Shown: positions 11,131-56,760 of the stretch, piece by piece | How positions within the stretch are numbered: the first letter of the stretch is position 1 | Layout of the letters: the number at the start of each line of letters is the position of its first letter | DNA from: Acidobacteriota bacterium | GTDB taxonomy: Bacteria; Acidobacteriota; Vicinamibacteria; Vicinamibacterales; SCN-69-37 | Length of the DNA: 64,000 nt | Assembly: GCA_039933635.1 (NCBI GenBank) | Contig: JBDTNQ010000002.1 | Location: 41,560 to 105,559 of the forward strand | Reading direction: 5' to 3' | Made by a program: the position numbers and the translations under genes | The notes under the pieces: model-generated | What the model was told of the DNA's origin: nothing | Databases searched by the model: none | What the model saw: the letters and a program-made list of their open reading frames with translations, nothing else

Positions 11131-12101
11131 AACTCATCATCCAGATTCCCTGCCTGAATGAGGCCACAACGCTGCCGGCCACGCTGGCCGATTTGCCGAC
11201 GTCCGTACCGGGCATCGACACGATCGAGGTCGTGGTCGTGGACGATGGGTCCAAGGACAGCACGGCGGAGGTGGCGCGCGCGCACGGCGTGCAGCATGTG
11301 ATTCGGTTCCGACGGCGCAAGGGCCTGGCGGCGGCGTTCATGGCCGGCATCGATGCGAGTCTCCGCGCGGGCGCGGACTTCATCGTGAACACGGACGCGG
11401 ACAATCAGTACGCGGGCGCCGATATTGCCAAGCTCGTCCTGCCGCTGCTCTCCGGCGAGGCGGACATCGTGATTGGCGATCGCAACATCCGCGAGATCAG
11501 CCACATGTCCTGGCCAAAAAAGGTGCTGCAGCGGCTCGGCAGTTGGGTCGTGCGACAGATCTCCCGCACCGAGGTGCCCGATACGACGAGCGGATTCCGC
11601 GCGTATACCCGCGAGGCGGCGCTGCGTATGACGGTGGTGTCGGAATTCTCGTACACGCTCGAATCCATCATTCAGGCCGGCAAGAAGCGGATGGCCATCT
11701 CGCACGTCCCGGTGGCGACCAACGCCATTACCCGGCCCTCGCGGCTCTTCAACAGCATCTGGGCCTATCTGAAACAGTCCGGCGCCACCATCGTTCGCGT
11801 CTACACGATGTACGAGCCGTTGAAGGTGTTCTCGTATATCGGCTCGTTCATCTTTCTCATCGGGTTCGCGGTCGCCCTGCGCTTCCTCTACTACTACTGG
11901 TTCACGTACCAGTCGGAAGGCAAGATCCAGTCGCTGATCCTGTCCGCCGTGCTGATGATCGTCGGATTCCAGGTGATCTTGATCGGTCTCGTCGCTGACG
12001 TGCTCTCGGGCACGCGCAAGCTGCTCGAGGACCTGCTCTATCGCGTGCGCCGGATGGAGATCGACGACCACGACCGCGTCGAACGCGGGAACGATCACTG
12101 A
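11127..12101 (+). CDS. GT2 polyprenyl-phosphate glycosyltransferase (GtrB/Dpm1-like) with C-terminal TM helices
   Basis: IIQIPCLNEATTL, VVVDDGSKDST and NTDADNQ (DXD) motifs. Hydrophobic C-terminus FSYIGSFIFLIGFAVAL...SLILSAVLMIVGFQVILIGLV. GTGA overlap with the upstream stop. Confidence 0.8.
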   Translation: MKLIIQIPCLNEATTLPATLADLPTSVPGIDTIEVVVVDDGSKDSTAEVARAHGVQHVIRFRRRKGLAAAFMAGIDASLRAGADFIVNTDADNQYAGADIAKLVLPLLSGEADIVIGDRNIREISHMSWPKKVLQRLGSWVVRQISRTEVPDTTSGFRAYTREAALRMTVVSEFSYTLESIIQAGKKRMAISHVPVATNAITRPSRLFNSIWAYLKQSGATIVRVYTMYEPLKVFSYIGSFIFLIGFAVALRFLYYYWFTYQSEGKIQSLILSAVLMIVGFQVILIGLVADVLSGTRKLLEDLLYRVRRMEIDDHDRVERGNDH

Positions 12102-12103
12102 GC

Positions 12104-12964
12104 ATGGCCCACCCGTCCACCGTTTCCGTCGTCATTCCCTGCATGAACGAAGCAGGCGCTATCGGGACCGTCGTCCGCGATCTCGCGGCGGCCGGCGCGT
12201 GGCGGGAGATCCTGGTGATCGACGACGGCTCGACGGATGCGACCGCCGCCGAGGCCGAGGCCGCCGGCGCGCGCGTGGTGCGGCATCCCTACAACAAAGG
12301 CAACGGCGCGTCGGTCAAGACGGGCATCCGCACGGCAACCGGCGACTACATGCTCATCATCGACGGCGACGGCCAGCACAAGCCGTCCGACGCGGTGCGC
12401 CTGGTCAGCCGGCTTGGCGCGTTCGATCTCGTGGTCGGCGCGCGTTCGCCGTCGACCCAGGCGGGCGTGCGGCGACGGTTGGGCAACGCCGCCTTGAACG
12501 GACTGGCATCCTACCTCGCGCAATTCCCGATTCCCGATCTCACGTCCGGATTTCGCGCGGCGCGTCTCGACGCGCTGCGCGAGTTCATCACGATGCTGCC
12601 GAATGGGTTCTCGACGCCGACCACCACCACGCTGTGCTTCCTCCGCGCGGGGTACAACGTCGTTTTCGAGCCCATCGAGGCGCGCGTGCGGATCGGCCAG
12701 TCGAAGATTCGCCTCGCGCGTGACGGCCCGAAGTTCCTGCTCATCATGCTGCGCGTGATGACCATCTTCAGCCCGCTCCGCGTGTTCCTGCCGATTGCCG
12801 GCGCATCCTTTCTGATGGGCGCGGGCTACGCGGCGTGGACGATTGCCACACAGTCACACGTCACGAACTCGTCCGTGCTCCTCATCATGCTGGCCGTTGT
12901 GATCCTGCTCGTCGGGCTCGTGTCCGAGCAGGTGGCGGTACTTCGCGCCGATGGTCGCCGGTAG
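12104..12964 (+). CDS. GT2 polyprenyl-phosphate glycosyltransferase (GtrB-like) with C-terminal TM helices
   Basis: VSVVIPCMNEAGAIG, LVIDDGSTDAT and IIDGDGQH motifs. C-terminal TM segments IFSPLRVFLPIAGASFLMGAGY and VLLIMLAVVILLVGLV. Confidence 0.8.
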   Translation: MAHPSTVSVVIPCMNEAGAIGTVVRDLAAAGAWREILVIDDGSTDATAAEAEAAGARVVRHPYNKGNGASVKTGIRTATGDYMLIIDGDGQHKPSDAVRLVSRLGAFDLVVGARSPSTQAGVRRRLGNAALNGLASYLAQFPIPDLTSGFRAARLDALREFITMLPNGFSTPTTTTLCFLRAGYNVVFEPIEARVRIGQSKIRLARDGPKFLLIMLRVMTIFSPLRVFLPIAGASFLMGAGYAAWTIATQSHVTNSSVLLIMLAVVILLVGLVSEQVAVLRADGRR

Positions 12965-14192
12965 CCCGAACGGCTTTCCGCGCGCGTTCGTGGTCGGCGC
13001 GGTCCTCGTCGGACTCGTCGTTCGCCTCGCGTTCGGCTTGTGGTACTGGAACGGACAGGCGCTCACGCGCGACGAACTCGAGTACTTGTCACTGGCGCGG
13101 AGCCTGGCTGCCGGCCACGGCTTCGTCTACGACGAGGTGCTCCGCGCCGGATCGTTCACGCCGTTCGGACGCTCACCCGGATATCCGGCTTTCCTCGCGT
13201 TGATCGGCGCCGGCAGCCGGGTTTTCACGAGCGCGCCAACAGCTGTGAAGGTGGCGCAATCGTTCGTGGGTGCGATTGGCGTGTGGCTCGCGGCCATCGT
13301 GGCATTCCGCGTCGGGGGCACCCGGGCAGCCCGCGCGGGTGCCGCCATTGCGGCCGTCTATCCCCCGCTGGTCTGGATCGCGGCCTTTGTGTGGAGCGAA
13401 TCGATATTCTGGCCGCTTGGCCTGTTCATCGCCTGGCTCTTCGATCGCGCGGTCGCCCGCGGCGGTCGGGCGCTGGGCGGTTTCGTCTGCGGCGTCGTCG
13501 TTGGGCTGGCCATCATCACCAGACCTGCGATCATTCTCTTCCTGCCGCTCGCGGGGATCTATCTGATCTGGAAGCGGCACCCGCGTATGCTCGCGGCCAT
13601 GGCGGTCGGCGTCCTGCTCGTGTACCTGCCGTGGACGGCGCGGAACTACCTATTCCACGGCCGCGTCATGGTGGTGGCGTCTGACGGTGGCGTGACATTC
13701 TGGACCGGCAACCACCCGCTGGCGATCGGCGAAGGTGACATGGCGGCCAACAGCGCGCTGAAACTCGACAACCAGCGCCTGCGCGCCAAGCACCCGGGCT
13801 TGACCGAGGAAGAGATGGAGCACTTCTACTACGAGGAAGCGTTCAGCTGGATGCGAGCGCATCCCCTGGCGTGGATGACGCTCGAGTTGAAGAAGGCGTT
13901 CTATCTCGTCGTCCCCATCGGTCCGTCCTATACGCTCCACTCCGTAAGGTACTTCGTCACGTCCGTGGTGTCGTATGGCACGCTCCTCGGATTGGGCTTC
14001 GTTGCGATCGCGCGACGGCGCTTCAGGCTGGGCGACGCCGCGGGTGTGTGGCTGCTTGCGGGCTCGGCCGTCCTCGTCTGTCTCGTGTTCTTTCCACAGG
14101 AACGTTTCCGCATTCCCCTGATCGATCCGGCGCTCGTGGTGCTCGGCGGCCTTGGCATCGCGACGTTGTTCCCGAGTACCTCTCGCCCATGA
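12951..14192 (+). CDS. GT-C fold membrane glycosyltransferase (ArnT/PMT_2, GT39/GT83-like)
   Basis: Multi-TM protein. First-loop acidic motif TRDELEYLSLARSLAAGHGF, characteristic of ArnT/PMT-like enzymes. Confidence 0.7.
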   Translation: MVAGSPNGFPRAFVVGAVLVGLVVRLAFGLWYWNGQALTRDELEYLSLARSLAAGHGFVYDEVLRAGSFTPFGRSPGYPAFLALIGAGSRVFTSAPTAVKVAQSFVGAIGVWLAAIVAFRVGGTRAARAGAAIAAVYPPLVWIAAFVWSESIFWPLGLFIAWLFDRAVARGGRALGGFVCGVVVGLAIITRPAIILFLPLAGIYLIWKRHPRMLAAMAVGVLLVYLPWTARNYLFHGRVMVVASDGGVTFWTGNHPLAIGEGDMAANSALKLDNQRLRAKHPGLTEEEMEHFYYEEAFSWMRAHPLAWMTLELKKAFYLVVPIGPSYTLHSVRYFVTSVVSYGTLLGLGFVAIARRRFRLGDAAGVWLLAGSAVLVCLVFFPQERFRIPLIDPALVVLGGLGIATLFPSTSRP

Positions 14193-14914
14193 CCCTGCTT
14201 GTCGTCCTGCCCACCTACAACGAACGGCTCAACCTCGAGAAGGTCGCCGACGCCGTGATGCGTCACGACTTCACCCGCATGCTCGTCGTCGACGATGCCT
14301 CACCCGATGGCACGGGCGACCTGGCGGATGAACTGGCGCTGCGGTGGCCTGGTCGCATCCAGGTCATGCACCGCACAGGCCCGCGCGGATTGGGGCTCGC
14401 GTACATCGACGGTCTGCGCCGCGCGCTGGCGACCGACGCGGACGCCATCGGCCAGATGGATGCGGACCTGTCGCACGATCCTGTCTATCTGCCGAGTCTC
14501 GTGGCGGCACTGACCAGGCACGATATGGCGATCGGTTCGCGCTATATGCAGGGCGTCAGCGTGGTCAACTGGCCGCTGCACCGGCTGGTATTGAGCGCGT
14601 TCGCGAACCGCTACATCCGCGCGGTGACGGGACTCAGCCCGACCGACTGCACCAGCGGGTTTCGCGTGTGGCGCCGCGAAGCGCTGGCGCGCCTTCCGCT
14701 CGAGACGGCGCGCACGAGCGGTTACGCCTTCCTGACCGAAATGCTGTACGAGGCGGGACGCCTCCGCTTGCGCATCGGGGAGGTGCCGATCGTCTTCGTG
14801 GAGCGACAGGAAGGCTACTCGAAGGTGTCGCAGAAAGTCCTGCTCGAATCACTCCTGACGCCGTGGCGGCTCATCTTGCGCGGCGGGCGCTGCGGTCCGC
14901 CGTCGTCTCCCTGA
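14189..14914 (+). CDS. polyprenol-monophosphomannose synthase-like GT2 (Dpm1/Ppm1-like)
   Basis: MTLLVVLPTYNERLNL, LVVDDASPDGTG and QMDADLSHDP motifs. ATGA overlap with the upstream stop. The longer ORF (13871) is an N-terminal artefact. Confidence 0.8.
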   Translation: MTLLVVLPTYNERLNLEKVADAVMRHDFTRMLVVDDASPDGTGDLADELALRWPGRIQVMHRTGPRGLGLAYIDGLRRALATDADAIGQMDADLSHDPVYLPSLVAALTRHDMAIGSRYMQGVSVVNWPLHRLVLSAFANRYIRAVTGLSPTDCTSGFRVWRREALARLPLETARTSGYAFLTEMLYEAGRLRLRIGEVPIVFVERQEGYSKVSQKVLLESLLTPWRLILRGGRCGPPSSP

Positions 14915-14919
14915 CCCGT

Positions 14920-16131
14920 ATGCGCCACGTTGTCGTCATGGTTGCCACCTCGTATCCGAGGTTTCCGGGGGACGGCGTCGGCAGCTTCATGGAGCCCATC
15001 GCCAAGGGCATTGCGGCGCGTGGACACGAAGTCCACCTGGTCGCCCCATGGCACCCCGCCATTACGCGGGGCCGTGAAGACGAGGGCGTCTTCTTTCACT
15101 TCTTTCGATACGCGCCGATGCCGTCGCTGAACGTCTTCGGTTATGCCTCCGGCCTGCAGGCGGACACGCGCCTGAAGAACGCTGCCTGGATGGTGGCGCC
15201 GGCGGCTCTGGCGGCTGGCTGGTTCAAAGCGATGCGCGTCGCGCAGAAGCGACGCGCGACGGTCATGCACGCGCACTGGGTGATTCCCGGCGGGGTCATC
15301 GGCGCCATGGCGGCGCGCCGCCTGCCGCTCGTCGTCAGCCTGCATGGATCGGATGTCTTCGTCGCCGAGCGGCACGCGCTCGTGGGGCGCGTCGCGCGCT
15401 CGGTATTCGCGCGCGCGGCCTGGGTCACTGCGTGCAGTGACGACCTGCACCAACGCGCCTTGACCCTCGGCGCTGTTCCGGCCGCGACGGAGACCGTGCC
15501 GTACGGTGTCGATCTCCGCCGGTTCGCGCCCGACGCAACGTCGAGGACGGACGTCCGCGCCACATACGGCGTGGGCGATGCGCCATTGATCGTCAGCGCG
15601 GGACGGCTGGTGAGCAAGAAGGGCTTCGAAGTGCTGATCGACGCGGTTGTGCGCCTGCGGGAATCGGCGCCGACGACGCGTCTGCTCATCGCCGGGGACG
15701 GCGATCTGCGGGACGCGCTCACCGCGCGAGCCACGCGTCTCGATCAACCGGTGCTCATCGGTAACCAGTCACAGGACGCAATCGCGAAGCTCGCCGCGGC
15801 AGCCGACATCGTGGCGGTGCCGTCGGTGCACGACGAGGCGGGCAACGTCGATGGCCTGCCAAATTTCGCGCTCGAAGCCCTGGCCACAGGAACGCCGGTC
15901 GTGGCCAGCCGTGTCGGCGGTCTGCCGCAGGCGATCGAGCACGGCGTCACGGGGCTGCTCGTACCGGAGCGCGACGTCGCCGCGCTGGCCGGGGCCCTCG
16001 CGGCACTGCTCGTCGATCCTGGACGTCGGCGCGTCCTGGGCCAGGCCGCCAGAGAAGCCGTTGCACGGAATTTCTCGTGGCAGGCCGTGGCCGAGCGGCT
16101 CGAAGGAATCTACGACCACGTCGGCCGCTGA
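14920..16131 (+). CDS. GT4-family glycosyltransferase
   Basis: MRHVVVMVATSYPRFPGDGVGSF and DEAGNVDGLPNFALEALATGTPVVASRVGGLP. Trimmed from ORF 14344. Confidence 0.8.
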   Translation: MRHVVVMVATSYPRFPGDGVGSFMEPIAKGIAARGHEVHLVAPWHPAITRGREDEGVFFHFFRYAPMPSLNVFGYASGLQADTRLKNAAWMVAPAALAAGWFKAMRVAQKRRATVMHAHWVIPGGVIGAMAARRLPLVVSLHGSDVFVAERHALVGRVARSVFARAAWVTACSDDLHQRALTLGAVPAATETVPYGVDLRRFAPDATSRTDVRATYGVGDAPLIVSAGRLVSKKGFEVLIDAVVRLRESAPTTRLLIAGDGDLRDALTARATRLDQPVLIGNQSQDAIAKLAAAADIVAVPSVHDEAGNVDGLPNFALEALATGTPVVASRVGGLPQAIEHGVTGLLVPERDVAALAGALAALLVDPGRRRVLGQAAREAVARNFSWQAVAERLEGIYDHVGR

Positions 16132-16178: not shown

Positions 16179-16955
16179 ATGCCAACTGATGTTCCAGAGC
16201 TCCCCCTCGGACTCAGCATCTTCTTCCCTGCCTACAACGACAGTGGAACGATCGCGAGTCTGGTCATTGCGGCTCGTCAGGCCGCCCAACGTGTCACACG
16301 CGATTTCGAGATTCTCATCATCAACGATGGAAGCGCGGACCGCACGGCCGAGATCGCCGACGAGCTCGCGCACACCTACCCGGAGGTGCGCGCGATCCAT
16401 CACGTCGTCAACCGCGGCTACGGTGGCGCCCTGCGCACCGGGTTCAGCGAATCGCGCAAGGACGTCATCTTCTACACCGATGGCGACGCGCAGTACGATC
16501 CCGCCGAACTCGTGGCCCTGTGGCCGCAGCTGACGCCCGGAATCGACCTGGTCAACGGCTACAAGATCAGCCGATCCGACCCGTGGCATCGCATCGTGAT
16601 CGGGCGTATCTATCACCACACGGTGAAGATTCTGTTCGGCCTTACCGTGCGCGACGTCGATTGTGATTTCCGGCTCATGCGGCGGTCGATCTTCAATCGC
16701 GTGCACCTCGAGCACAACAGCGGGGTGATCTGCCTCGAAATGATGAAGAAGATCACCGACGCGGGTTTCGGGATCGCCGAGGTGCCCGTGCACCACTACC
16801 ACCGCGCGTTCGGACGTTCGCAGTTCTTCAACTTCCGACGGCTCGCGCGCACCGTCGTCGACGTCGGCAACCTCTGGGTCACGCTCGTCGTCTTGAAGCG
16901 GCATCGGCGAACCGCGTCCAGTAACACCGAAGCCCTTCGGCGTCACCAGCCATGA
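16179..16955 (+). CDS. GT2 polyprenyl-phosphate glycosyltransferase (ArnC/Dpm1-like)
   Basis: LSIFFPAYNDSGTI, LIINDGSADRT and YTDGDAQYDP motifs. Trimmed from ORF 16077 to ATG 16179. Confidence 0.75.
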   Translation: MPTDVPELPLGLSIFFPAYNDSGTIASLVIAARQAAQRVTRDFEILIINDGSADRTAEIADELAHTYPEVRAIHHVVNRGYGGALRTGFSESRKDVIFYTDGDAQYDPAELVALWPQLTPGIDLVNGYKISRSDPWHRIVIGRIYHHTVKILFGLTVRDVDCDFRLMRRSIFNRVHLEHNSGVICLEMMKKITDAGFGIAEVPVHHYHRAFGRSQFFNFRRLARTVVDVGNLWVTLVVLKRHRRTASSNTEALRRHQP

Positions 16956-17977
16956 CGCCGGACTACCGCGAGTTCTATCGCGGTCGCCGCGTGCTCATCA
17001 CCGGCGGCCTCGGGTTCCTGGGATCCAACCTGGCGCGCGACCTCGTCGACCTGGGCGCGGACGTGCTGATCGTCGACTCGCTCCTGCCCGACTACGGAGG
17101 CAATCTTTTCAATCTCGACGGCTATGAATCGCGTCTCCGCGTGAACATCGCGGACATCCGTCAGGGCACGACCATGAACTACCTGGTGCGAGGGCGCGAG
17201 GTGATCTTCAACCTCGCGGGCCAGGTGAGTCACATCGACAGCATGCGGGATCCCCATACGGATCTGGAGATCAACTGCCGGTCGCAGTTGACGCTGCTCG
17301 AGGCGTGTCGCCAGCACAACCCGTCGACAAAGGTCGTCTACGCCGGCACGCGGCAGATCTATGGCAAGCCGGACAGACTGCCCGTCGACGAATCGCACCT
17401 CGTGCGGCCGACCGACATCAACGGCATCAACAAGGCCGCCGGGGAGCAGTACCACCTGGTCTACAACAACGTGTTCGGCGTGCGCGCCTGCTCGCTGCGC
17501 CTCACGAACATCTACGGCCCGCGCCAGCTCATTCGGCACAACCGCCAGGGCTTCATCGGATGGTTCATCCGGCTCGCGCTGGAGGGCCGCGAAATTCAGA
17601 TCTATGGCGACGGCTCGCAGGTCCGGGACTTCGTCTACGTCGACGACGCGTCGGACGCGTTCCTGCGGGCCGGCTACCACGACGCGTGCAACGGCGGCGT
17701 CTTCAACGTCGGCGGCAGCGAGCCGATCGCGCATCGCGACCTCGTCTCGATGCTGATCGCCGCAAGCGGACGGGGCACCTTGCGCTTCGTAGAATGGCCC
17801 GACGAGAAGCGCAAGATCGACATCGGATCGTTCTACTCCGACTCCACGCGCCTGACCGAGGCGACCGGGTGGACGCCGGAGGTGGACCTGCGCACGGGCC
17901 TCACCGCCACGTTGGCGTACTATCGTGAGTACTTCGGTCGCTACGTGGATCCGGCGGCCGACGCACAGCCAACATGA
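16952..17977 (+). CDS. extended-SDR NAD-dependent sugar epimerase/dehydratase family protein (atypical active-site motif)
   Basis: VLITGGLGFLGSNLARDLV Rossmann motif. Where YxxxK is expected the sequence reads NGINK (17420-17434). Confidence 0.75.
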   Translation: MTPDYREFYRGRRVLITGGLGFLGSNLARDLVDLGADVLIVDSLLPDYGGNLFNLDGYESRLRVNIADIRQGTTMNYLVRGREVIFNLAGQVSHIDSMRDPHTDLEINCRSQLTLLEACRQHNPSTKVVYAGTRQIYGKPDRLPVDESHLVRPTDINGINKAAGEQYHLVYNNVFGVRACSLRLTNIYGPRQLIRHNRQGFIGWFIRLALEGREIQIYGDGSQVRDFVYVDDASDAFLRAGYHDACNGGVFNVGGSEPIAHRDLVSMLIAASGRGTLRFVEWPDEKRKIDIGSFYSDSTRLTEATGWTPEVDLRTGLTATLAYYREYFGRYVDPAADAQPT

Positions 17978-19077
17978 CGATCCCTTTTATGACGCTCGAG
18001 CCCCGCGAGGACGCGCCCGCACTGCGGGAGGCCATCGATCGGGTGATCACCCGCGGCTGGTACGTTCTGGGACCCGAGCTCGACGCGTTCGAGCACGAGT
18101 TCGCCCGAGCCTCCGGTGCCGCCCACGCGATCGGCGTCGGCAACGGCACCGACGCCATCGCGCTCATCCTGCGCGCGCTCGGCATCGGGCCCGGCGACGA
18201 GGTCATCACGACACCGCTTTCCGCGGCGTTCTCCGCGCTGGCCATCATGATGGCGGGCGCCACGCCCGTGTTCGCCGACATCGATCCGGATCGGCTGACC
18301 ATCGACCCGCGCGCAGTCGAGGCGGTTCTCACTCCACGCACCAAGGCGATCCTGCCCGTGCATCTGTACGGGCAGCCGGCAGACCTGACGGCGCTCGAAG
18401 CCATCGCGACGCGTCACGCCCTCGCGCTCGTCGAGGACGCGTGCCAGGCACATCTGGCGACGAGCAACGGGCGGCCAGTCGGCTCTGTGGGCATCGCCGG
18501 GGCCTTCAGCTTCTATCCAACCAAGAATCTCGGCGCGCTCGGAGACGGCGGGGCCATCGTCACGTCCGACGCGGATCTCGCGGCGCGGCTTCGCAGTCTA
18601 CGAAACGGCGGCCAGTCCGATCGCTACCATCACCCGGATTTCGGAGTGAACAGCCGGCTCGACGAGCTTCAGGCGGCGATCCTGCGGGTGCGCCTCGAAC
18701 GACTGCCCGCCTGGACGACGCGACGCCGGGACCTGGCGTCGCGCTATCGCGCGGGCCTGGCCGGCGGCCCGGTCACCGTGCCTCCGGAATTCGACGCGGG
18801 GCACGTCTACCACCTCTTTCCCGTGCTGACGCCTCATCGGGCGTCGTTCATGGCGCACCTGAAAGAGCGCGGCATCGGATCGCTCATCCACTACCCGATC
18901 TCGATCGCCCGACAGCCCGGTATCGTCACGCCCCACCGCGATCGGTGCCCGGTGGCCGATCGGGTCTGCGACCAGGTCTGCTCCCTGCCGCTGCATCCGT
19001 TCCTGTCTGACGCTGACGCCGACCGCGTCGTCGCGGCGGTTCAGCAGTGGCAGCCGTCAGGCACACTATCCACCTGA
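17974..19077 (+). CDS. DegT/DnrJ/EryC1/StrS-family PLP-dependent sugar aminotransferase (ArnB/WecE-like)
   Basis: GVGNGTDAIALILRALG, plus the PLP-lysine context FSFYPTKNLGALGDGGAIVT. Confidence 0.85.
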   Translation: MTIPFMTLEPREDAPALREAIDRVITRGWYVLGPELDAFEHEFARASGAAHAIGVGNGTDAIALILRALGIGPGDEVITTPLSAAFSALAIMMAGATPVFADIDPDRLTIDPRAVEAVLTPRTKAILPVHLYGQPADLTALEAIATRHALALVEDACQAHLATSNGRPVGSVGIAGAFSFYPTKNLGALGDGGAIVTSDADLAARLRSLRNGGQSDRYHHPDFGVNSRLDELQAAILRVRLERLPAWTTRRRDLASRYRAGLAGGPVTVPPEFDAGHVYHLFPVLTPHRASFMAHLKERGIGSLIHYPISIARQPGIVTPHRDRCPVADRVCDQVCSLPLHPFLSDADADRVVAAVQQWQPSGTLST

Positions 19078-21611
19078 TGCTCCATCTCGTCCTTGCAGCG
19101 CTGATCGTCGGCTACCTGCCTGGTGCACTGATCTTCCGGCTGCCCGGGCGTTCGCGGCCGCTCCGCGTCTCGCTCTCATTCGAGGAGCGGACGTTCTGGG
19201 CGCTGCTGCTGAGCGCGCTCTGGTCCGTGATGCTCGTCCTCGCACTGGGCGCCCTGAACCGCTACACGTTCGCGCGCCTCCTCACCATCAATGTCGTCGG
19301 CGCCGTCATCCTCGTCGCCGGACTGCGCGGCCGCCTCAGGTATCGCGATCAGGTCACACGCGTTTCATGGACGGCGCTCGTGCCGTTGACCATCGTGGCC
19401 GCGGGCATCTGGCTGTACTCACCGACGTCCGAATACATCATCGGCGGCAAGGATCCGGGCACCTATATCAACGAAGGCGTTCAGATTGCGCAGCGCGGCC
19501 AGGTCGTCATCCGCGATCCCGATGTTGCGGTCGTGCCGGCCCCCTATCGCGATCTGTTCTTTCCGTCACATCAGCAGACCACGTACTACGGTCTGCGGTT
19601 CATGGGCTTCTTCATCCAGGATCCCGACGCGGGCCGCGTCGTCGGCCAGTTCCCGCACTTCTATCCAGCTTCGATCGCGCTGGGTTATGCCCTCAATGGG
19701 TTGAGCGGTGCGCGCCAGACCGTGGTGTTCTGGACGATTCTCGCGGTACTGGCGGTGTACTTCGCCGGCCGGCGGATGTTTGGCCACGCGGTCGCCGCCG
19801 CAGCGGCGGTCCTGCTCGCGTTGAACGTCGTCGAGGTCTGGTTCGGGCGCTACCCGAATAGCGAAATGACGATGCAGGCGCTCATCTTCGCGGCGCTGCT
19901 GGCCGCGGGACGCGCGCGCGACGGCGGACGGGTCTTCTTCGGTGTCGTCGCAGGCGTCGTGCTGGGACTGTCGCTGTTTCTGCGCTACGAAATCCTGCTC
20001 GCATTTGCCGCGTTCGCCGCGGCCGGCGTGATGGCACCCGTGAGCGGCCGTCGACTCGGCGCGCCTTTTCAGGGGGCACTGGCCGTCACATCGCTCGCGG
20101 GCCTCTGGTACCTGGCCGGGCCCATGCGCGCCTACTTCGCCTATCCGCTCGACTTCGTGCATCAGCGCGGCGGCGTCCTGCTGGCCGTTGTCGGACTCGT
20201 GACGTCCGTCGCCGCACATTGGCTGCTGCGGCGTCCGACCGTGAACACCGCGGTGCGGCGCCTGCTCCCTGCGGCGCTGGCCATCGCGCTCGCCGCCTTG
20301 GCGGTGTACGCCTACTTCTTCAGGCAGATGGAAGGTCGCACGGCGCTCGGGGATGCCATGGCGTTCCGAACCTTCGGGTGGTATCTCACGCCGTGGGTCC
20401 TGGCGATCGCTGTTGCGGGCGCGGTCGTGATGATCGCCACGCGCTTCTGGCGCGATCCCGAGTTCTACCTGACCGTGGCCACGTTCAGCGTTTTCTTCTT
20501 CTACAAGACGCGGATCGTCGCCGAACACTTCTGGACGGCTCGTCGATTTCTCGGCGTGGCATTACCCAGCGCGCTGCTGCTCGCCATGGCCGGGATTCGA
20601 TGGGCATCGGGCGGCACCGCGACCACACAACCTGCTGATGCGTCTGCCGCACGAGATGCGAGATCACGACCTCGGTGGCGCGAAGTGACGAGTCTCACGG
20701 TCGTGACCATCGTCGCGATTGGCATCGGTGTGTCGTTCTGGCGCGCCGCGACGCCTGTGCGTCGTCACGTCGAGTACGCGGGTCTGATTCCGAAGCTCGA
20801 ACAACTCGCGGCCCGCGTGGGCGATCGCGATCTAGTGCTCGTGGAATCGCGAAATGCTGGATCCGATCTTCACGTGCTCGCCATGCCGCTCGCGTACATC
20901 TACAGCCGTCACGTCTTGGTGCTCGACTCGGTCGTGCCGGCGCGCGCGCCCTTCGAGGGCTTCATCGCATGGGCAACGACGAAATACGAACACGTGTATT
21001 TTCTGGGCGGCGGCGGCACCGACCTGCTCACGAAGGACATCAGCGCCCTGCCCGTGGCGGGCGATCGCTTCCAGGTCGATGAATACGACGCACCGATGAA
21101 TGCGTATCCGTCGGGTGCGCGTCGCAAGGAATTCGAGTACGGCCTCTACGAATTGATGCCGGCCCGCCAGGTCACGCCGGCGACGATTGACCTGCAGATC
21201 GGCGGGCTCGACGATCTCAACGTCGTGCGCTTCCACGCGCGCGAACGGCGCGCCGACACCGGGCTGAAATACCGCTGGAGCGGCGGTCAGTCGTTCGTGA
21301 TTCTGCTGGGCTTGCCGGCGGATGCCCGGGAACTCATCGTCTGGATGAGCTCGGGCGGACGCCCGGCGCAGGCGCCGCCGCCCGTGGTGCAGTTCGCCCT
21401 CGATGATGAGGACATCGGTCAGGCGACGGCCGGCGAGGACGTCCAGCCCCACGTGCTGACGCTGCCAGCCGGACTGGCGGCACGGCTGGCCGCGAAGAAC
21501 GATTCGACGCGACTGCGACTGCGTGTGCCCACCTGGAACCCTGGCGCGCTGCTCGGCGTGAACGACACACGCGACCTCGGGGTCATCGTGACGCGCGTCC
21601 AAGTCCGGTAA
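19077..21611 (+). CDS. large GT-C-like membrane glycosyltransferase with a C-terminal soluble (periplasmic) domain
   Basis: About 844 aa. N-terminal two-thirds are multi-TM, with loop motif IIGGKDPGTYINEGVQIAQRG. The C-terminal ~280 aa are hydrophilic. TGATG coupling to the aminotransferase gene. Confidence 0.6.
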   Translation: MLHLVLAALIVGYLPGALIFRLPGRSRPLRVSLSFEERTFWALLLSALWSVMLVLALGALNRYTFARLLTINVVGAVILVAGLRGRLRYRDQVTRVSWTALVPLTIVAAGIWLYSPTSEYIIGGKDPGTYINEGVQIAQRGQVVIRDPDVAVVPAPYRDLFFPSHQQTTYYGLRFMGFFIQDPDAGRVVGQFPHFYPASIALGYALNGLSGARQTVVFWTILAVLAVYFAGRRMFGHAVAAAAAVLLALNVVEVWFGRYPNSEMTMQALIFAALLAAGRARDGGRVFFGVVAGVVLGLSLFLRYEILLAFAAFAAAGVMAPVSGRRLGAPFQGALAVTSLAGLWYLAGPMRAYFAYPLDFVHQRGGVLLAVVGLVTSVAAHWLLRRPTVNTAVRRLLPAALAIALAALAVYAYFFRQMEGRTALGDAMAFRTFGWYLTPWVLAIAVAGAVVMIATRFWRDPEFYLTVATFSVFFFYKTRIVAEHFWTARRFLGVALPSALLLAMAGIRWASGGTATTQPADASAARDARSRPRWREVTSLTVVTIVAIGIGVSFWRAATPVRRHVEYAGLIPKLEQLAARVGDRDLVLVESRNAGSDLHVLAMPLAYIYSRHVLVLDSVVPARAPFEGFIAWATTKYEHVYFLGGGGTDLLTKDISALPVAGDRFQVDEYDAPMNAYPSGARRKEFEYGLYELMPARQVTPATIDLQIGGLDDLNVVRFHARERRADTGLKYRWSGGQSFVILLGLPADARELIVWMSSGGRPAQAPPPVVQFALDDEDIGQATAGEDVQPHVLTLPAGLAARLAAKNDSTRLRLRVPTWNPGALLGVNDTRDLGVIVTRVQVR

Positions 21612-21630: not shown

Positions 21631-22983
21631 ATGATCCGATCCCTGCTTTCCCTCCGCGTGGACCGCGCCATCATGGTCGTGGGCGCCTGCCTCGTGGTGG
21701 CGTACCTCGCCGCGATGACGGTGATGCGCAAACCCGATGGCCGTGTCGTGTTCGGTGATGCGACGCATCATTTCGTCCAGTTGCGATCGATCGTGTTCGA
21801 TCGCGATCTCGACTTCCGAAACGAATACATCCGCCTCTACGGTCTACAAGGCGAGGTGCCGGGGACGGAATGGATCTACACGGACCTTACGAGCACCGGG
21901 CATGTGCGGAACTACATGCCTGTCGGACCCGCATTGCTGTGGGCGCCGCTCTACATCCTGGTGGCGGCGATCCAGACGATGCTCAGCTGGGTCGGGGTTG
22001 CAGCGAAGCCGGATGGCTTCGATCGCGCGCTGCAACTGGTCCCCGGCATTACGGGCATTCTCGCGGCCACGATGGCGGCCTGGCTCGCATGGCGCATCGC
22101 GCTCAGCCGGACGAGTTCGCGAGCGGCGGGCACAGCCGTCTTCGGCGTCTGGCTCGGATCGCACGCGCTCTACTACTCGCTGGCGTCCCCGTCTTACTCG
22201 CACACGGCGTCCATGCTCATGACGTCGATCTTTCTGGCCAGCTGGCTCTCGACGCGTGGCAACGTCAGCATCGCGCGTCTGGCCTGGTGGGGCGCGCTCT
22301 GTGGTTTCGCGGCCCTGATGCGCTGGCAGGATGCATTGTTCATGGCCGTTCCGCTTATCGAAGCGGCACGCTGGACGGCGCCTCTGGGGAGGCGAGTCGC
22401 CGGAGCGATGGCGGCGGGCGTGGGTTTCGTGCTCGCGTTTTCGCCGCAAATGGTCGTATGGACCGTGCTGTACGGACAGCCGCTGGCGCTGCCCCAGGGG
22501 CCATCATTCATGCACTGGACGGACCCGCATCCGTTTCTGCTGCTGTTCTCAGATAGTCACGGCCTCTTCACCTGGGCGCCGATTCTCGTGCCTGCTGCGA
22601 TCGGCCTGATCGTGTGGCTCCGGCGCGAACCGGCCGTCGCGCTGCCCATCACGGTCGTCCTGCTGGCGTCCTGGTACACCAACGCGGCCGTGGCCGACTG
22701 GTGGGCTGGCGAGGCCTTCGGCGCGCGCCGCTTCCTGTCGTTGTTTCCACTGTTCGTCGTCGGATTGGCGGTCTGGCTGCAGCCGCGCGCCTCGGAGGGC
22801 GTCCGATCGTGGCGGTTGGCCGTGGTGGGCGTTCTCGGCGTGATGAATGCGTTGCTGCTGCTACAGTACGAACTCGTCATGAAAGGGTTGTTGCGGATCG
22901 CGCCGTACCCCTACGGCTGGTACGACATGTGGTTCGCGCGCTTCGCGGTGCCCATCCGCCTCCTCCGGGAGTGGCTGTCGTGA
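21631..22983 (+). CDS. multi-pass membrane protein, GT-C-like
   Basis: 450 aa and strongly hydrophobic. First-loop motif FGDATHHFVQLRSIVFDRDLDFRNEY. Confidence 0.5.
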   Translation: MIRSLLSLRVDRAIMVVGACLVVAYLAAMTVMRKPDGRVVFGDATHHFVQLRSIVFDRDLDFRNEYIRLYGLQGEVPGTEWIYTDLTSTGHVRNYMPVGPALLWAPLYILVAAIQTMLSWVGVAAKPDGFDRALQLVPGITGILAATMAAWLAWRIALSRTSSRAAGTAVFGVWLGSHALYYSLASPSYSHTASMLMTSIFLASWLSTRGNVSIARLAWWGALCGFAALMRWQDALFMAVPLIEAARWTAPLGRRVAGAMAAGVGFVLAFSPQMVVWTVLYGQPLALPQGPSFMHWTDPHPFLLLFSDSHGLFTWAPILVPAAIGLIVWLRREPAVALPITVVLLASWYTNAAVADWWAGEAFGARRFLSLFPLFVVGLAVWLQPRASEGVRSWRLAVVGVLGVMNALLLLQYELVMKGLLRIAPYPYGWYDMWFARFAVPIRLLREWLS

Positions 22984-24161: not shown

Positions 24162-25960
24162 TGGACGGGGCGCTGACGTGCGTCGGCATCTCTGGCGCCA
24201 CGGAACGGTCGTTACTGGCGGACTGGCTCTCGCCAGCGCTCCGCGAGCAGGTCCGTGAGGACGCCTACGCCTTCATCAAGCGCCTGCGGCACGTTACCGT
24301 CGACGGGATGCCGATGCGCGCGCGGTTCACGTTTCGCGACGACTCGCTTTGGTGGTTCACGGAGATCTACCTCCACAAGATGCGGCGCATCGAGACGGCG
24401 ATCGCCACGTTGCTCGCCCTTGACGCGGCGTGCCGGCACCACGATCCGGCGCGGCTGTCCGTCACGACGACCGACGCAACGGTCGGCGTTGCCGCGCGGG
24501 CCTTTGCGGCCGCGGCGCGGCAGCCTATCGACATCGTGGCGTCGCCCACCGCGCGCTCTCGTCCGCGCTGGACGTCGTTCCTGATCGGCGCGACCGCTCA
24601 GGCGTCGCGCCTGCGTCCGCAGCGGCACGTCACCGTGCCGGCGCACACCCGCGTCGCGGCCTTCGTCCACACGGCGTTTTGGCGCCGGCGGTCGGCGCCG
24701 GATCTGATTGGAGAGGAGCACTACATCGGCCCCGTGCTTCACGCGCTCGCCGCGAAGACCGCCGCCGGCGTGACGTGCGTCGGCGTCGGCCCGCGCCGAA
24801 CCTTTCGCGCCAGACGATGGTGGGACACGCTGACTCCCGGCGAGCCAACCGTGTTGCCCATCGAGCACCTGGCGCCGCGCCATGCGATCCGTGACGCGCT
24901 CGCGTTCTGGCGACGGCGCGAGCAGTACGCGCGCGAGGTTGTCGCAGGCGACGCGGTGCGCGCGGCAGGCCTCTACGGCCAGTGGGACCTGTGGCCTATT
25001 CTGCGCGCGGAGCTCGAGGAGACTGCCCGCGTGCAGTGGCCCTGGTCGGTGCGCGCGATGGACGAAGCCGGCGCCGCGCTCGACACGCTGAAACCCGGTG
25101 TCGTCGTGACCTATGCCGAAGCCGGTGGGGGCGGCCGCGCGCTCATGCTGGAAGCCCGGCGCCGCCACATCCCCTCAGTGGGACTGCAACACGGGTTCAT
25201 CTACCGGCACTGGCTGAACTACCGCCATGAGCGGGACGAGATGTCGGCGTCGGGGTCTGACTGCGGGTTTCCTCGACCAGACCTCACCTTGCTCTTCGAC
25301 GGGTACGCGGCTGCGCATCTCCGGTCAGCGGGCGCGTTTCCACCCGAGTCCCTGGCCATCACTGGTAGTCCGCGGCTCGACGAACTCGCGGAGCGCGTGA
25401 GTTCGGCCGTGCCGGATCGGGCCCAGATGAGAACAGAGGCCGCGGTTGGGCCCGAAGGCAAGCTCATCGTGTTCGCCGCGAAGTTCACCGAGATCGGCGA
25501 CCAGCTCGGGGCCTTCTTCGATGCCGCGCTCTCATGCCCCGACGTCGTCGTAGTGGTCAAGCCCCATCCGGCGGATCGCGCGGAGGACTACGCGCGCGTG
25601 GCCGCCGGCCGCGCGGGCATTCGCGTCGCCGCGCCCGACGCGGACCTCGGCCGGTTGCTGGCCGCCGCCGATGCGGTCGCGACGATGAACTCCACCGTGG
25701 CGCTCGATGCGATGGTGCTGGGGGTACCGGCCGTCGTCATCGGTCTGCCGAACAACCTCACGCCGTTCGTCGAGGCCGGAGTCATGTTCGGCGCCGATCG
25801 CACCTCCCTCGGGGCAGTCCTGCGAGCACTCCTATATGATCGGCGGGCGCGCGACGACTGGCGTCAGCGGGCTCGGGACTACGCGGCACGGTACGACATG
25901 CGCGCGGACGGCCAGGCCGCGGCGCGGGCGGCGGACGCCATATTGAGGGTGAGTCGATGA
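24158..25960 (+). CDS. hypothetical 600-aa protein. The C-terminal half may be GT-B-like (capsule-synthesis or glycerophosphotransferase-like), unverified.
   Basis: ATGA coupling on both sides. The C-terminal pattern VVVKPHP...AVATMNSTVALDAMVLGVPAVVIG resembles the nucleotide-sugar-binding half of GT-B enzymes. No firm family recognised. Confidence 0.4.
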   Translation: MMDGALTCVGISGATERSLLADWLSPALREQVREDAYAFIKRLRHVTVDGMPMRARFTFRDDSLWWFTEIYLHKMRRIETAIATLLALDAACRHHDPARLSVTTTDATVGVAARAFAAAARQPIDIVASPTARSRPRWTSFLIGATAQASRLRPQRHVTVPAHTRVAAFVHTAFWRRRSAPDLIGEEHYIGPVLHALAAKTAAGVTCVGVGPRRTFRARRWWDTLTPGEPTVLPIEHLAPRHAIRDALAFWRRREQYAREVVAGDAVRAAGLYGQWDLWPILRAELEETARVQWPWSVRAMDEAGAALDTLKPGVVVTYAEAGGGGRALMLEARRRHIPSVGLQHGFIYRHWLNYRHERDEMSASGSDCGFPRPDLTLLFDGYAAAHLRSAGAFPPESLAITGSPRLDELAERVSSAVPDRAQMRTEAAVGPEGKLIVFAAKFTEIGDQLGAFFDAALSCPDVVVVVKPHPADRAEDYARVAAGRAGIRVAAPDADLGRLLAAADAVATMNSTVALDAMVLGVPAVVIGLPNNLTPFVEAGVMFGADRTSLGAVLRALLYDRRARDDWRQRARDYAARYDMRADGQAAARAADAILRVSR

Positions 25961-26940
25961 GAGTTCTGTTGACCGGCGGCGCGGGGTTCGTCGGGGGCCA
26001 CCTGGCCGAGCGATTGCTGGATCTCGGTCACGAGGTCATGGTGATCGACGATCTCTCGACCGGATCGATGGACAATATTGTCCACCTCAAGACGCGCGCC
26101 GGATTCGAGTACGTGATCGATTCGATCATGAACGACCGGCTCACCGCCGAATTGGTCGATCGCGCGGACGTCATCTTCCATCTCGCCGCCGCCGTCGGCG
26201 TGAAGCTCATCGTGGAAGCACCGGTGCGCACGATCGAGACGAATGTGCACGGCACGGAGATCGTCCTGACGCACGCGAGCAAGAAGGGCAAGCTCGTCGT
26301 GATCTTCTCGACGTCGGAGGTCTACGGCAAGAGCACCGACGTGCCCTTCCGCGAAGACTCCGACCTCGTGATGGGACCGACGTTCAAGCATCGATGGGCG
26401 TACGCGTGCAGCAAGGCGCTCGACGAGTTCCTGGCGCTCGCCTATTACCGCGAGCGCGACCTGCCCGTCATCGTCCTGCGACTGTTCAACACCGTCGGTC
26501 CGCGCCAGACAGGACGATACGGGATGGTCATCCCGACATTCGTCCGGCAGGCCCTGACCGGACAGCCCATCACGGTGTACGGCGACGGCCAACAGAGACG
26601 GTCCTTCACGTATGTTGGGGACGTCGTCGAAGCCATCACGAGGCTGGTGGTCGAACCGGCGGCGATTGGGCAGGTGTTCAACATCGGGAACGTCGAGGAA
26701 ATCTCCATCCTCGCGCTCGCCGAACGCATTCGATCGATGGCGGGCAGCCGTTCGGAGATCGTGCTCGTGCCCTACGAGGAAGCCTACGACGCGGGATTCG
26801 AGGACATGCCCCGCCGCGTGCCGTCGCTCGACAAGATTCACCGGCTGGTCGGGTACCGGCCTACCGTCGATCTCGAGGAAATCCTCGCCCGGGTCATTGC
26901 CCACGAACGGGCGGGCGCGGCCCTGGCGAATCGGGGATAA
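25957..26940 (+). CDS. extended-SDR NAD-dependent epimerase/dehydratase (UDP-glucuronate decarboxylase/UXS-like)
   Basis: VLLTGGAGFVGGHLAERLL, and canonical YxxxK in WAYACSKALDE. Confidence 0.8.
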   Translation: MRVLLTGGAGFVGGHLAERLLDLGHEVMVIDDLSTGSMDNIVHLKTRAGFEYVIDSIMNDRLTAELVDRADVIFHLAAAVGVKLIVEAPVRTIETNVHGTEIVLTHASKKGKLVVIFSTSEVYGKSTDVPFREDSDLVMGPTFKHRWAYACSKALDEFLALAYYRERDLPVIVLRLFNTVGPRQTGRYGMVIPTFVRQALTGQPITVYGDGQQRRSFTYVGDVVEAITRLVVEPAAIGQVFNIGNVEEISILALAERIRSMAGSRSEIVLVPYEEAYDAGFEDMPRRVPSLDKIHRLVGYRPTVDLEEILARVIAHERAGAALANRG

Positions 26941-33885: not shown

Positions 33886-33898
33886 TCCGAGACGACTG

Positions 33899-56631: not shown

Positions 56632-56760
56632 GGTTGTACGTCGCAGCAAGATTCGTTCCGCGCCGGCAATTGGGGGCACCCTCACGGATGCACCGCGTCC
56701 AGCCTGAAACTGCACGTGAGGCGACGGTATTCGTGCGAAGCTGCTGTCGAGGTTCCGTCT

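Follow-up and report, generated by a model that had tools for sequence, protein, structure and literature searches.

A putative Arn-like cassette with a tyrosine-less SDR in an envelope glycan island of an Acidobacteriota bacterium

Does a four-gene cassette of an Acidobacteriota bacterium deliver an amino sugar to the cell envelope in the manner of the Arn (PmrHFIJKLM) pathway, and are its enzymes Arn enzymes? The cassette lies in a 64,000-nucleotide stretch of contig JBDTNQ010000002.1 (hereafter the window, meaning the whole stretch that was analysed) and consists of four co-directional open reading frames (ORFs) for a family 2 glycosyltransferase (GT2), an extended short-chain dehydrogenase/reductase (SDR) without the catalytic Tyr, a DegT-family pyridoxal phosphate (PLP)-dependent sugar aminotransferase (AT) and a glycosyltransferase with a GT-C fold (Table 1). 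An earlier note on this DNA had called the cassette Arn-like, a description that holds for the overall logic of the system but not for the homology of enzyme to enzyme, that is, for the SDR, the AT, the GT2 and the position of the decarboxylase. The logic shared with Arn runs from a nucleotide sugar through a keto sugar to an amino sugar made by a DegT enzyme, followed by the transfer of this sugar to undecaprenyl phosphate by a GT2 and its use by a periplasmic GT-C. We consider it somewhat better than an even bet that the cassette is a system of this kind, Arn-like in logic, which would deliver a polyprenyl-phosphate-linked amino sugar to a glycan acceptor by way of the GT-C.

The gene coordinates and overlaps given by the earlier note were confirmed from the ORFs and from the sequences of the junctions, which read ccATGAcg between GT2 and SDR, acATGAcg between SDR and AT, and ccTGATGct between AT and GT-C. 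Given that the GC content at third codon positions is 0.78–0.88 in the called frames, in a window of 67% GC, the four ORFs represent the coding frames. The assignment to four enzyme classes agreed with Pfam (Glycos_transf_2, 88 bits, for the GT2; Epimerase/extended SDR, 160 bits; DegT_DnrJ_EryC1, 374 bits, for the AT), with the PMT_2 match of the GT-C, at 28 bits, barely above the cut-off. The reported lack of a formyltransferase and of an adjacent deformylase was also borne out: no Formyl_trans or polysaccharide deacetylase domain, corresponding to the NH2-terminal domain of ArnA and to ArnD, was found among the approximately 50 large window ORFs scanned.

Related loci were surveyed by scanning GTDB species representatives with motifs of the Tyr-less SDR (12-sequence alignment). 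At least 596 relatives were confirmed among at least 600 matched stretches, and 80 loci, nearly all from metagenome-assembled genomes (MAGs) of Vicinamibacterales/Acidobacteriota and a few labelled Anaerolineae or Chloroflexota, were mapped with the window proteins. The AT gene directly followed the SDR gene in 71 of 76 loci, the GT2 gene directly preceded it in 60 of 77, and a gene for a second SDR resembling UDP-xylose synthase (UXS) directly followed the AT gene in 31 of 67. Conservation of the GT2-SDR-AT order well beyond chance was thus confirmed. The 844-aa GT-C was encoded within 8 kb in 17 of the 80 loci, in all 17 of them immediately after the AT, and a GT-C ortholog with 56% identity stands alone at an unrelated locus of another MAG (L001/L002). 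Given this count and the solitary ortholog, the constant unit is the trio of GT2, Tyr-less SDR and AT, often together with the UXS-like SDR, and the GT-C is an accessory present in a subset of genomes. In Vicinamibacterales the slot between mraZ and yqeY that houses the cassette is hypervariable, with the SDR-AT pair as its constant part: the smallest forms (L008 and L053) contain the pair and a few other genes, such as one for a GNAT protein, a common form (L012, L015 and L027) has the order GT4-GT2-GT2-GT2-SDR-AT-UXS(-GNAT), and the fully expanded form of approximately 36 kb is represented by the window and L003.

More distant neighbourhoods were taken from the loci of SDR-DegT fusion proteins. 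In many independent clusters a Tyr-less SDR and a DegT aminotransferase were joined in one protein of approximately 650–760 aa; every fused SDR domain was Tyr-less, and archaeal fusions had Gln instead of Asn. The adjacency of the two genes in 71 of 76 loci together with these fusions indicates, at the level of sequence, that the SDR and the AT are a functional pair. The L085 locus, possibly planctomycete as judged solely by a DUF1559/SBP_bac_10 gene, encodes a PMT_2 GT-C, an S-adenosylmethionine (SAM) methyltransferase, a joined GT2 and SDR, a DegT protein and a further methyltransferase, and L086 encodes a PMT_2 GT-C, a methyltransferase, a GT2 with a 101-aa tail of two transmembrane segments, an SDR-DegT fusion and a methyltransferase. 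The end of the L086 tail (GEYLGR...) is one that we take to be the COOH-terminal motif of ArnC/GtrB. In L089 a GT2, an SDR-DegT fusion, a methyltransferase and a YfhO-family GT-C are encoded together, and in L080, from Anaerolineae, the GT2-SDR-AT trio stands alone amid housekeeping genes. The GT2 proteins of these four loci all had ArnC as their best NCBIfam match (52–114 bits). The archaeal locus L088 contains an SDR-DegT fusion beside STT3/AglB and a Wzx-like flippase. Two further loci are polysaccharide clusters with an SDR-DegT fusion and no GT-C: L087, with GT2, GT4 and GT11 glycosyltransferases and acyltransferases, and a locus with a Wzm/Wzt ABC transporter. Given that methyltransferases flank the distant loci and that GNAT proteins are encoded in Vicinamibacterales islands, the data suggest frequent methylation or acylation of the amine.

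The GT2-SDR fusion of L085 (P0443) was considered as Rosetta-stone evidence and rejected, as its linker is junk-like and looks frameshifted; it was counted as adjacency. As a separate observation, five proteins (P0490, P0491, P0498, P0500 and P0260) consist of a Tyr-less SDR fused to an NH2-terminal region of approximately 320–370 aa without a Pfam match, one of them in a context that adjoins a Methyltransf_21 protein, a DegT protein and a Wzm/Wzt ABC transporter.

The SDR of the cassette retains the NAD-binding GGxGFxG motif, D42 and the SDR fold. In place of the Ser/Thr-Tyr-Lys triad it has T133, N157 and K161, with N157 lying opposite the Tyr of YxxxK in HMMER alignments to 7ys8, 4zrm and 1orr. 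The residues upstream are T133-R134-Q135, as opposed to T-D-E in dehydratases and T-S-E in decarboxylases, so that the active-site signature reads TRQ...NxxxK. Among approximately 150 best cluster representatives at 50% identity, the column of the catalytic Tyr was occupied by Asn in 114 aligned domains and by Tyr in 38. In an alignment of 50 sequences, N157, R134, H94, D104, N108, D155, R183, R225 and the NAD-binding glycines were invariant, and N186 and K161 were at least 90% conserved. By analogy to the structures of GalE and RmlB, we take R183, N186 and R225 to be the residues that contact the nucleoside diphosphate (NDP). The strong constraint and the retention of these NDP-contacting residues argue that the enzyme is active and binds a nucleotide sugar. 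The reading as a decaying pseudoenzyme was rejected, since no protein of the cassette is better conserved: the SDR shares 83% identity with its L003 ortholog, compared with 53% for the GT-C in the same comparison. The protein belongs to a large uncharacterised clade with Asn for the catalytic Tyr, which has hundreds of matches among GTDB species representatives and, counted together with Tyr-bearing relatives, comprises approximately 2,000 clusters at E≤1e-30.

The nearest solved structures to the SDR were those of GalE-like 4-epimerases, CDP-tyvelose 2-epimerase and RmlB (107–132 bits). It had been assigned to the ArnA COOH-terminal (ArnA-C) class, an assignment at odds with a score of 31 bits for the ArnA hidden Markov model (HMM) and with TRQ/NxxxK in place of TSE/YxxxK. 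RmlB was the top NCBIfam match; a role as a 4,6-dehydratase was nonetheless rejected, since the Asp-Glu or Asp-Lys pair is missing together with the Tyr. The possibilities for its role are oxidation at C-3 or C-4 by means of another base, NAD-mediated 3,4-keto isomerisation of a 4-keto sugar, which a UXS-like or RmlB-like enzyme could supply, or something else. PglF, a sugar SDR without Tyr, acts directly upstream of a DegT aminotransferase. Active nucleotide-sugar SDRs that lack the Tyr include PglF and WbpM, with the motif TDK...Mx3K, and CapE; in the motif table of a review of nucleotide-sugar SDR dehydratases, which lists [ST]DE...Yx3K, TDK...Mx3K and others, TRQ...Nx3K is absent (PMC8987622). 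Unlike the present SDR, with its Thr-Arg-Gln and Asn-x3-Lys, these enzymes belong to the Polysacc_synt_2 subfamily of 4,6-dehydratases and use Thr, Asp and Lys. In a limited search of the searchable literature, no description of the TRQ...NxxxK clade or of an Asn-for-Tyr sugar SDR was found.

The AT had been described as ArnB-like. Its scores against structures in the Protein Data Bank (PDB) were 353 bits for 7b0d, 327 for DesV (2oga), 297 for QdtB (3frk) and 275 for WbpE, compared with 188–202 for the ArnB entries, and full-length identity was approximately 50% to 7b0d, 48% to DesV and 42% to QdtB. ArnB was the top NCBIfam model, but its 235 bits fall far short of the cut-off (631). The PLP lysine, K184 in SFYPTKNLG, is present and aligns with the Lys of 7b0d, DesV and QdtB. 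With C-3 aminotransferases ranking first, the AT groups by similarity with the C-3 enzymes DesV, QdtB and WbpE, far from ArnB. Nothing specific to PDB entry 7B0D was found in the searchable literature.

For the GT2, ArnC was the best NCBIfam match, at 87.6 bits over residues 12–228 with a cut-off of 529, followed among full-length matches by PgfS, a dolichyl-phosphate hexose transferase, AglJ and PpgS; every full-length family match was thus a polyprenyl-phosphate glycosyl synthase. The closest solved structures were also those of ArnC (9hwj, 9bhc and 8vxh; E 1e-24 to 5e-21), which align over residues 12–231, and the next was the dolichyl-phosphate mannose synthase (DPMS) of Pyrococcus. The protein has DGD, a DxD motif, at residues 101–103 and the COOH-terminal motif HHYHRAFGRSQFF, which is also carried by its orthologs in L080 and L089; no transmembrane segment was predicted in it. 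Sequence comparison placed it in the GtrB/ArnC/DPMS class at the superfamily level only. We regard it as a putative polyprenyl-phosphate sugar synthase of an ArnC/GtrB/DPMS-like subfamily without COOH-terminal transmembrane helices. Mapping it to ArnC itself is difficult to reconcile with 88 bits against 529 and with the missing helices; it is ArnC-like in class and not an ArnC ortholog.

The GT-C is predicted to consist of a polytopic membrane domain (approximately residues 1–557) and a COOH-terminal extracytoplasmic domain, with approximately 13 hydrophobic helices in all. The earlier note had suggested comparing it with the structure of ArnT. An AlphaFold (AF2) model built from 46 homologs (pLDDT 89, pTM 0.89) gave as top Foldseek matches in the PDB AglB, ArnT (5f15, target-normalised TM-score 0.53), STT3, ALG12/9, PglB, DPY19 and AftA, with E-values of 1e-6 to 7e-4; at the level of the model, a GT-C fold was confirmed, with ArnT among the top matches. 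The 963 full-length homologs came mainly from Acidobacteriota/Vicinamibacterales. Invariant residues were E119, D126, E133 and D147 in the first large loop and the motif K477/R479/H484/R489/R490; the protein thus combines the fold with conserved acidic residues in a loop, as expected of a GT-C in transmembrane glycosylation systems, their catalytic role being putative. Among NCBIfam models there was no ArnT match, and LA_3751/2 scored 38 bits.

The large extra COOH-terminal domain that had been noted in this protein of approximately 844 aa was seen in the AlphaFold model, where a beta-sandwich comes after a small alpha/beta subdomain. The sandwich had weak Foldseek matches (E 4e-4 to 2e-3, target-normalised TM-score up to 0.57) to CBM51, CBM6, CBM35, the carbohydrate-binding domain of BcsB and the sandwich domains of Cry toxins, and in the model it looks like a lectin or carbohydrate-binding module. 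As a side observation, the solitary GT-C ortholog is overlapped by the gene for a conserved 237-aa protein of a family without assignment (L001 12514-13227; L002 5371-6084), which has no counterpart in the window.

What follows is an inference as regards the substrates, the sequence of reactions, the carbon that carries the amine, the acceptor and the catalytic activity of the SDR. The Tyr-less SDR and the AT would act in the cytoplasm as a pair that turns a nucleotide sugar into an amino sugar by way of a keto sugar, C-3 being the most likely site of the amino group and C-4 a less likely one. The precursor may be supplied, in this lineage, from UDP-glucuronate by the UXS-like decarboxylase encoded downstream. 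The ArnC-like, membrane-peripheral GT2 would then move the amino sugar onto polyprenyl phosphate, and the lipid-linked sugar would be flipped across the membrane, for which the candidates are the Wzx-like protein of the island and an unlinked gene product. Finally, the GT-C would transfer the amino sugar in the periplasm to a glycan acceptor, bound with the help of its lectin-like COOH-terminal domain. Action at the level of the nucleotide sugar is favoured because the SDR keeps the NDP-contacting Arg and Asn residues and because the AT is approximately 50% identical to dTDP-sugar enzymes. A polysaccharide or the core or O-chain of lipopolysaccharide (LPS) is more likely as the acceptor than the phosphates of lipid A, given the lectin-like domain of the GT-C and the surrounding GT9, GT4 and Wzx genes. 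The tight translational coupling of the four genes is consistent with such a scheme.

The earlier note had also proposed a polyprenyl-linked amino sugar, transfer in the periplasm and, possibly, an acceptor other than lipid A. This part gains support from the recurrence of GT2, SDR and AT near GT-C proteins of the PMT_2, YfhO and STT3 types, from the SDR-AT fusions and from the beta-sandwich of the GT-C, and the homology to Arn is the part that did not stand. The SDR and the AT indeed fall into clades for other sugars, which weakens the Arn label, and the evidence on the GT2 and the GT-C still points to polyprenyl-linked intermediates.

Several observations weigh against the proposed scheme. 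It is adjacency in a minority of genomes that ties the GT-C to the GT2, with the GT-C within 8 kb in 17 of 80 loci and solitary in another, and two distant loci with an SDR-DegT fusion, L087 and the Wzm/Wzt locus, have no GT-C nearby. The fused GT2-SDR protein of L085 may be a frameshift artefact. The GT2 lacks the transmembrane helices of ArnC and GtrB and lies far under all curated cut-offs, and the island is without a flippase of the ArnE/F or GtrA type. Without Tyr and without the Asp/Glu of dehydratases, the SDR would have no established mechanism, and it could be non-redox or inactive. The likeness of the GT-C COOH-terminus to a carbohydrate-binding module is based on weak Foldseek E-values.

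The same minority of GT-C-bearing loci can be read in another way, namely that the trio serves the cytoplasmic assembly of repeats of an O-antigen or exopolysaccharide, with the GT2 acting on an undecaprenyl-diphosphate-linked oligosaccharide and the GT-C being unrelated to it (a polymerase, a ligase-like enzyme, or a user of a different polyprenyl-phosphate sugar, made by one of the other three GT2 proteins). We think this unlikely, though it accommodates the 63 of 80 relatives in which the 844-aa GT-C is not encoded within 8 kb of the trio, the GT-C-free clusters with SDR-DegT fusions, the position of the L001 ortholog of the GT-C away from sugar genes and the lack of transmembrane helices in the GT2; the three other AglJ/PpgS-like GT2 proteins of the island could serve the GT-C enzymes. 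It would leave unexplained that all full-length family matches of the GT2 are polyprenyl-phosphate sugar synthases and that this subfamily travels with the SDR-AT pair across phyla. It also fits poorly with three independent distant loci in which GT2, SDR and AT are contiguous to a GT-C (PMT_2 in two, YfhO in one) with little else, and with the position of the 844-aa GT-C gene, which in the island always comes immediately after the AT gene and here overlaps it at TGATG.

That the cassette is a true Arn system that has diverged is improbable in our estimate. The UXS-like SDR would then decarboxylate UDP-glucuronate to UDP-4-keto-pentose and the AT, acting like ArnB, would make UDP-4-amino-4-deoxy-L-arabinose (UDP-L-Ara4N), the GT2 would act like ArnC and the GT-C like ArnT, and Ara4N would be placed on lipid A phosphates to confer resistance to cationic peptides. 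The UXS/ArnA-C-type SDR, with STSEVYG and YxxxK motifs, is linked to the cassette module, directly after the AT in 31 of 67 relatives and here at a distance of 4.3 kb downstream. Among solved structures the GT2 is closest to ArnC; ArnB is the top NCBIfam model for the AT (under its cut-off) and ArnT one of the top structural matches of the GT-C, and the GT9 of the island implies that LPS is made. Against this stand the scores of all three Arn proteins ArnA, ArnB and ArnC far under curated cut-offs, the position of the AT in the DesV/QdtB/WbpE neighbourhood and the GT2 without transmembrane helices. A formyltransferase, ArnD and ArnE/F were not found among the scanned ORFs of the window and in the island, and in four loci (L080 from Anaerolineae, L085, L086 and L089) the trio is not accompanied by a UXS-like gene. 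A diverged Arn system would give no role to the strongly conserved Tyr-less SDR, which has no Arn counterpart. The GT-C, in addition to lacking an NCBIfam ArnT match, has three extra NH2-terminal helices and is 300 aa longer, with a beta-sandwich that is presumably absent from ArnT.

The last alternative, in which the GT2 first makes a polyprenyl-phosphate sugar that the SDR and the AT would oxidise and transaminate at the membrane for use by the GT-C, by analogy to DprE1/DprE2 acting on decaprenyl-phosphoryl-ribose, would suit the nearly invariant GT2-SDR-AT order, the occurrence of the trio without another sugar-nucleotide gene nearby (L080) and an active site whose unusual TRQ/NxxxK signature could reflect a non-nucleotide substrate, but is rendered very doubtful by the presumed NDP-contacting residues of the SDR (R183 and R225 invariant, N186 at least 90% conserved), by the approximately 50% identity of the AT to dTDP-sugar enzymes, by the lack of a membrane-binding segment in either protein and by SDR-DegT fusions where no ArnC-like GT2 adjoins, as in the Wzm/Wzt locus.

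The proposed scheme, with amino sugar formation at the nucleotide level followed by lipid-linked transfer to a glycan, has parts in common with several known systems. In the general scheme of multi-component transmembrane glycosylation, a GtrB/ArnC-type GT2 makes a polyprenyl-phosphate monosaccharide with which a GT-C decorates an existing polymer outside the membrane (PMC8035078). The combination of GT2 and GT-C links the cassette to GtrA/GtrB/Gtr*, CsbB/GtcA/YfhO, PpgS/Rv3779, LgmABC and FlmF2/NaxD/FlmK, with a YfhO-family partner seen in L089. PpgS, like the GT2 of the cassette, is presumably a short GT2 without transmembrane helices. Systems of the Gtr, CsbB, PpgS, Lgm and FlmF2 types are known to load common sugars (Glc, GlcNAc or GalNAc), with any amine arising by later deacetylation. 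Unlike these multi-component transmembrane systems, the cassette has no linked flippase gene and has a dedicated pair of SDR and AT, which suggests that a specially made amino sugar is loaded.

The pathways for dTDP-3-amino-3,6-dideoxyhexoses and for desosamine and mycaminose (DesV, QdtB and TylB) resemble the cassette in their aminotransferases, to which the AT is 42–50% identical (DesV, QdtB and 7b0d), and the SAM methyltransferases that flank distant SDR-DegT genes may be analogous to the N-methylation of 3-amino sugars by DesVI and TylM1. They differ in that the cassette contains neither a cupin 3,4-ketoisomerase (Tyl1a/QdtA/FdtA) nor RmlA/RmlB and has the Tyr-less SDR in place of the expected supplier of a keto sugar, and in that its product apparently goes to a lipid carrier and a GT-C rather than to a GT-B enzyme and a natural-product aglycone. 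In mycobacteria, the large GT-C arabinosyltransferases Emb and Aft draw on a polyprenyl-phosphate monosaccharide as donor and have a COOH-terminal extracytoplasmic domain, like those that bind carbohydrates, for a polysaccharide acceptor. AftA was among the Foldseek matches of the GT-C; the arabinosyltransferases nevertheless differ in showing no detectable sequence similarity, in their donor and in host, the Acidobacteriota being diderm. No description of a module composed of GT2, Tyr-less SDR, DesV-like AT and GT-C, and nothing specific on the modification of lipid A in Acidobacteria, was found in a limited search of the searchable literature.

A bolder proposal, which we put forward tentatively and regard as possible rather than probable, is that the TRQ...NxxxK SDR represents a new catalytic class, for example an NAD-dependent C-3 oxidase or an intramolecular 3,4-keto-isomerase that replaces the cupins, and that, when fused to or paired with the DesV-like AT and joined by the ArnC-like GT2, it defines a widespread route by which 3-amino sugars, often N-methylated or N-acylated, reach extracytoplasmic GT-C enzymes on polyprenyl phosphate. 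Such a route would be found in Acidobacteriota, in Chloroflexota and in further bacteria, and archaea would have relatives of the Gln type next to AglB. The idea of the cassette as such is unsurprising for glycobiologists, and the lead worth following in enzymology is the Tyr-less SDR with its conservation and its wide range of fusions: the clade is strongly conserved and repeatedly fused to aminotransferases, yet it is without a residue considered essential to SDR catalysis. If the favoured scheme is true, periplasmic decoration of the Arn and Gtr types would come to include an amino sugar made for the purpose and acceptors that are glycans, and cationic decoration of surface glycans would bear on resistance to cationic peptides and on adhesion to soil particles. 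Few soil bacteria are as abundant as the Acidobacteriota, Vicinamibacteria included. To our knowledge, almost nothing is known of the envelope glycans of Acidobacteriota, and the island that contains the cassette offers a first handle on those of Vicinamibacteria.

Table 1 Cassette, surrounding glycan island and other features of the window. An empty cell means that no value was recorded.
Feature	Coordinates	Strand	Size	Remarks
GT2 of the cassette	16179-16955	+	258 aa	Best full-length matches polyprenyl-phosphate sugar synthases (ArnC/AglJ/PpgS-like)
Extended SDR without catalytic Tyr	16952-17977	+	341 aa	
DegT-family PLP sugar aminotransferase	17974-19077	+	367 aa	
GT-C fold glycosyltransferase	19077-21611	+	844 aa	PMT_2
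COOH-terminal domain of the GT-C	20754-21611	+	~285 aa	Residues 560–844; domain model pLDDT 90
Glycan island containing the cassette	10033-45628	+	~36 kb	Single-strand; Pfam/NCBIfam scans
mraZ-yqeY slot	9918-45667			
Island GT2	11127-12101	+		Best full-length matches polyprenyl-phosphate sugar synthases (ArnC/AglJ/PpgS-like)
Island GT2	12104-12964	+		As above
Island GT2	14189-14914	+	241 aa	As above
Island GT-C	12951-14192	+		PMT_2
Island GT-C	30935 (start)	+		PMT_2
Island GT-C	38217 (start)	+		PMT_2
Island GT-C	39788 (start)	+		PMT_2
Long ORF	14344-16131			
GT4	near 14920 (start)			
Polytopic membrane protein	21631-22983	+	450 aa	~7 hydrophobic helices; 19 nt after the GT-C
UXS/ArnA-C-type UDP-glucuronate decarboxylase-like SDR	25957-26940	+	327 aa	Motifs FSTSEVYG, YACSK and RLFNTVGPRQ
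Radical-SAM enzyme	26953-27900			
Radical-SAM enzyme	32662-33885			
Radical-SAM enzyme	33833-35371			
Wzx-like flippase	29452-30945	+	497 aa	
Polytopic protein	35375			
Double-GNAT-like protein	42428-43471		347 aa	
Gene without detectable family	43468-44469	+	333 aa	Overlaps the preceding double-GNAT-like gene
FtsI-type penicillin-binding protein	6055-8202	-		
Rhomboid protease	48101-48865			
ALG6/ALG8-family (GT-C) match	48298-50166			
Beta-helix and FG-GAP protein	53860-56715	-	951 aa	

The island is bounded on the left by mraZ/rsmH and dcw genes (for FtsI, MurE, MurF, MraY and MurD) on the minus strand and on the right by yqeY and murJ. In addition to its GT2 and GT-C genes it encodes three GT4 proteins, a GT9, three radical-SAM enzymes, two SAM methyltransferases and a GNAT protein. 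By its gene content it is an apparent locus for the assembly of envelope glycoconjugates, given the GT9, the GT4 proteins, the Wzx-like flippase and several more pairs of GT2 and GT-C. No small multi-transmembrane ORF of the GtrA, GtcA or ArnE/F flippase type was found within 9.9–46.5 kb.

The UXS-like SDR had been overlooked when the ArnA-C class was assigned to the Tyr-less SDR of the cassette, and it is the better candidate for an Arn-like decarboxylase. Its best PDB matches were human UXS1 (184 bits) and the COOH-terminal domain of ArnA (approximately 120 bits), and in NCBIfam it scored 164 bits for UDP-4-keto-pentose/UDP-xylose synthase and 131 bits for ArnA, both under the cut-off. A radical-SAM gene adjoins it here, and does so in L003 as well; of the three radical-SAM enzymes of the island, two have a SPASM domain and one has a B12-binding domain.

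The polytopic protein encoded just after the GT-C had as its sole family match a weak one to the NCBIfam model for the putative glycosyltransferase LA_3751/LA_3752 (27 bits), with no Pfam match. A homolog follows the GT-C in L003/L004 and L005 too, and the protein is possibly another GT-C-like enzyme. The 333-aa gene near the right end of the island, which had been read as deacetylase-like, gave no sequence match in Pfam, NCBIfam or the PDB. Many relatives also encode, where their island ends on the right, the double-GNAT-like protein that precedes it here, which may act as an N-acyltransferase on the amino sugar.

Four ArnC/AglJ/PpgS-like GT2 proteins and at least five PMT_2 GT-C proteins are encoded in this one island, which suggests several parallel pairs of a polyprenyl-phosphate sugar donor and a GT-C, an organisation that recalls mycobacterial cell-wall assembly, in a diderm acidobacterium. 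The long ORF that extends from within the third of these GT2 genes almost to the cassette is misleading; comparison with L003 showed a GT2 gene followed by a GT4 gene. The start of this GT2 gene overlaps the stop of the preceding GT-C gene.

Outside the island, the FtsI-type penicillin-binding protein encoded in the dcw cluster has a COOH-terminal PASTA domain, which is unusual on such proteins outside Gram-positive lineages. The ORF with an ALG6/ALG8-family match lies just after a rhomboid protease gene, and its true start is probably downstream of position 48865. The 951-aa protein combines a right-handed beta-helix with FG-GAP repeats; it has no relation to the cassette and is probably secreted or located at the cell surface.

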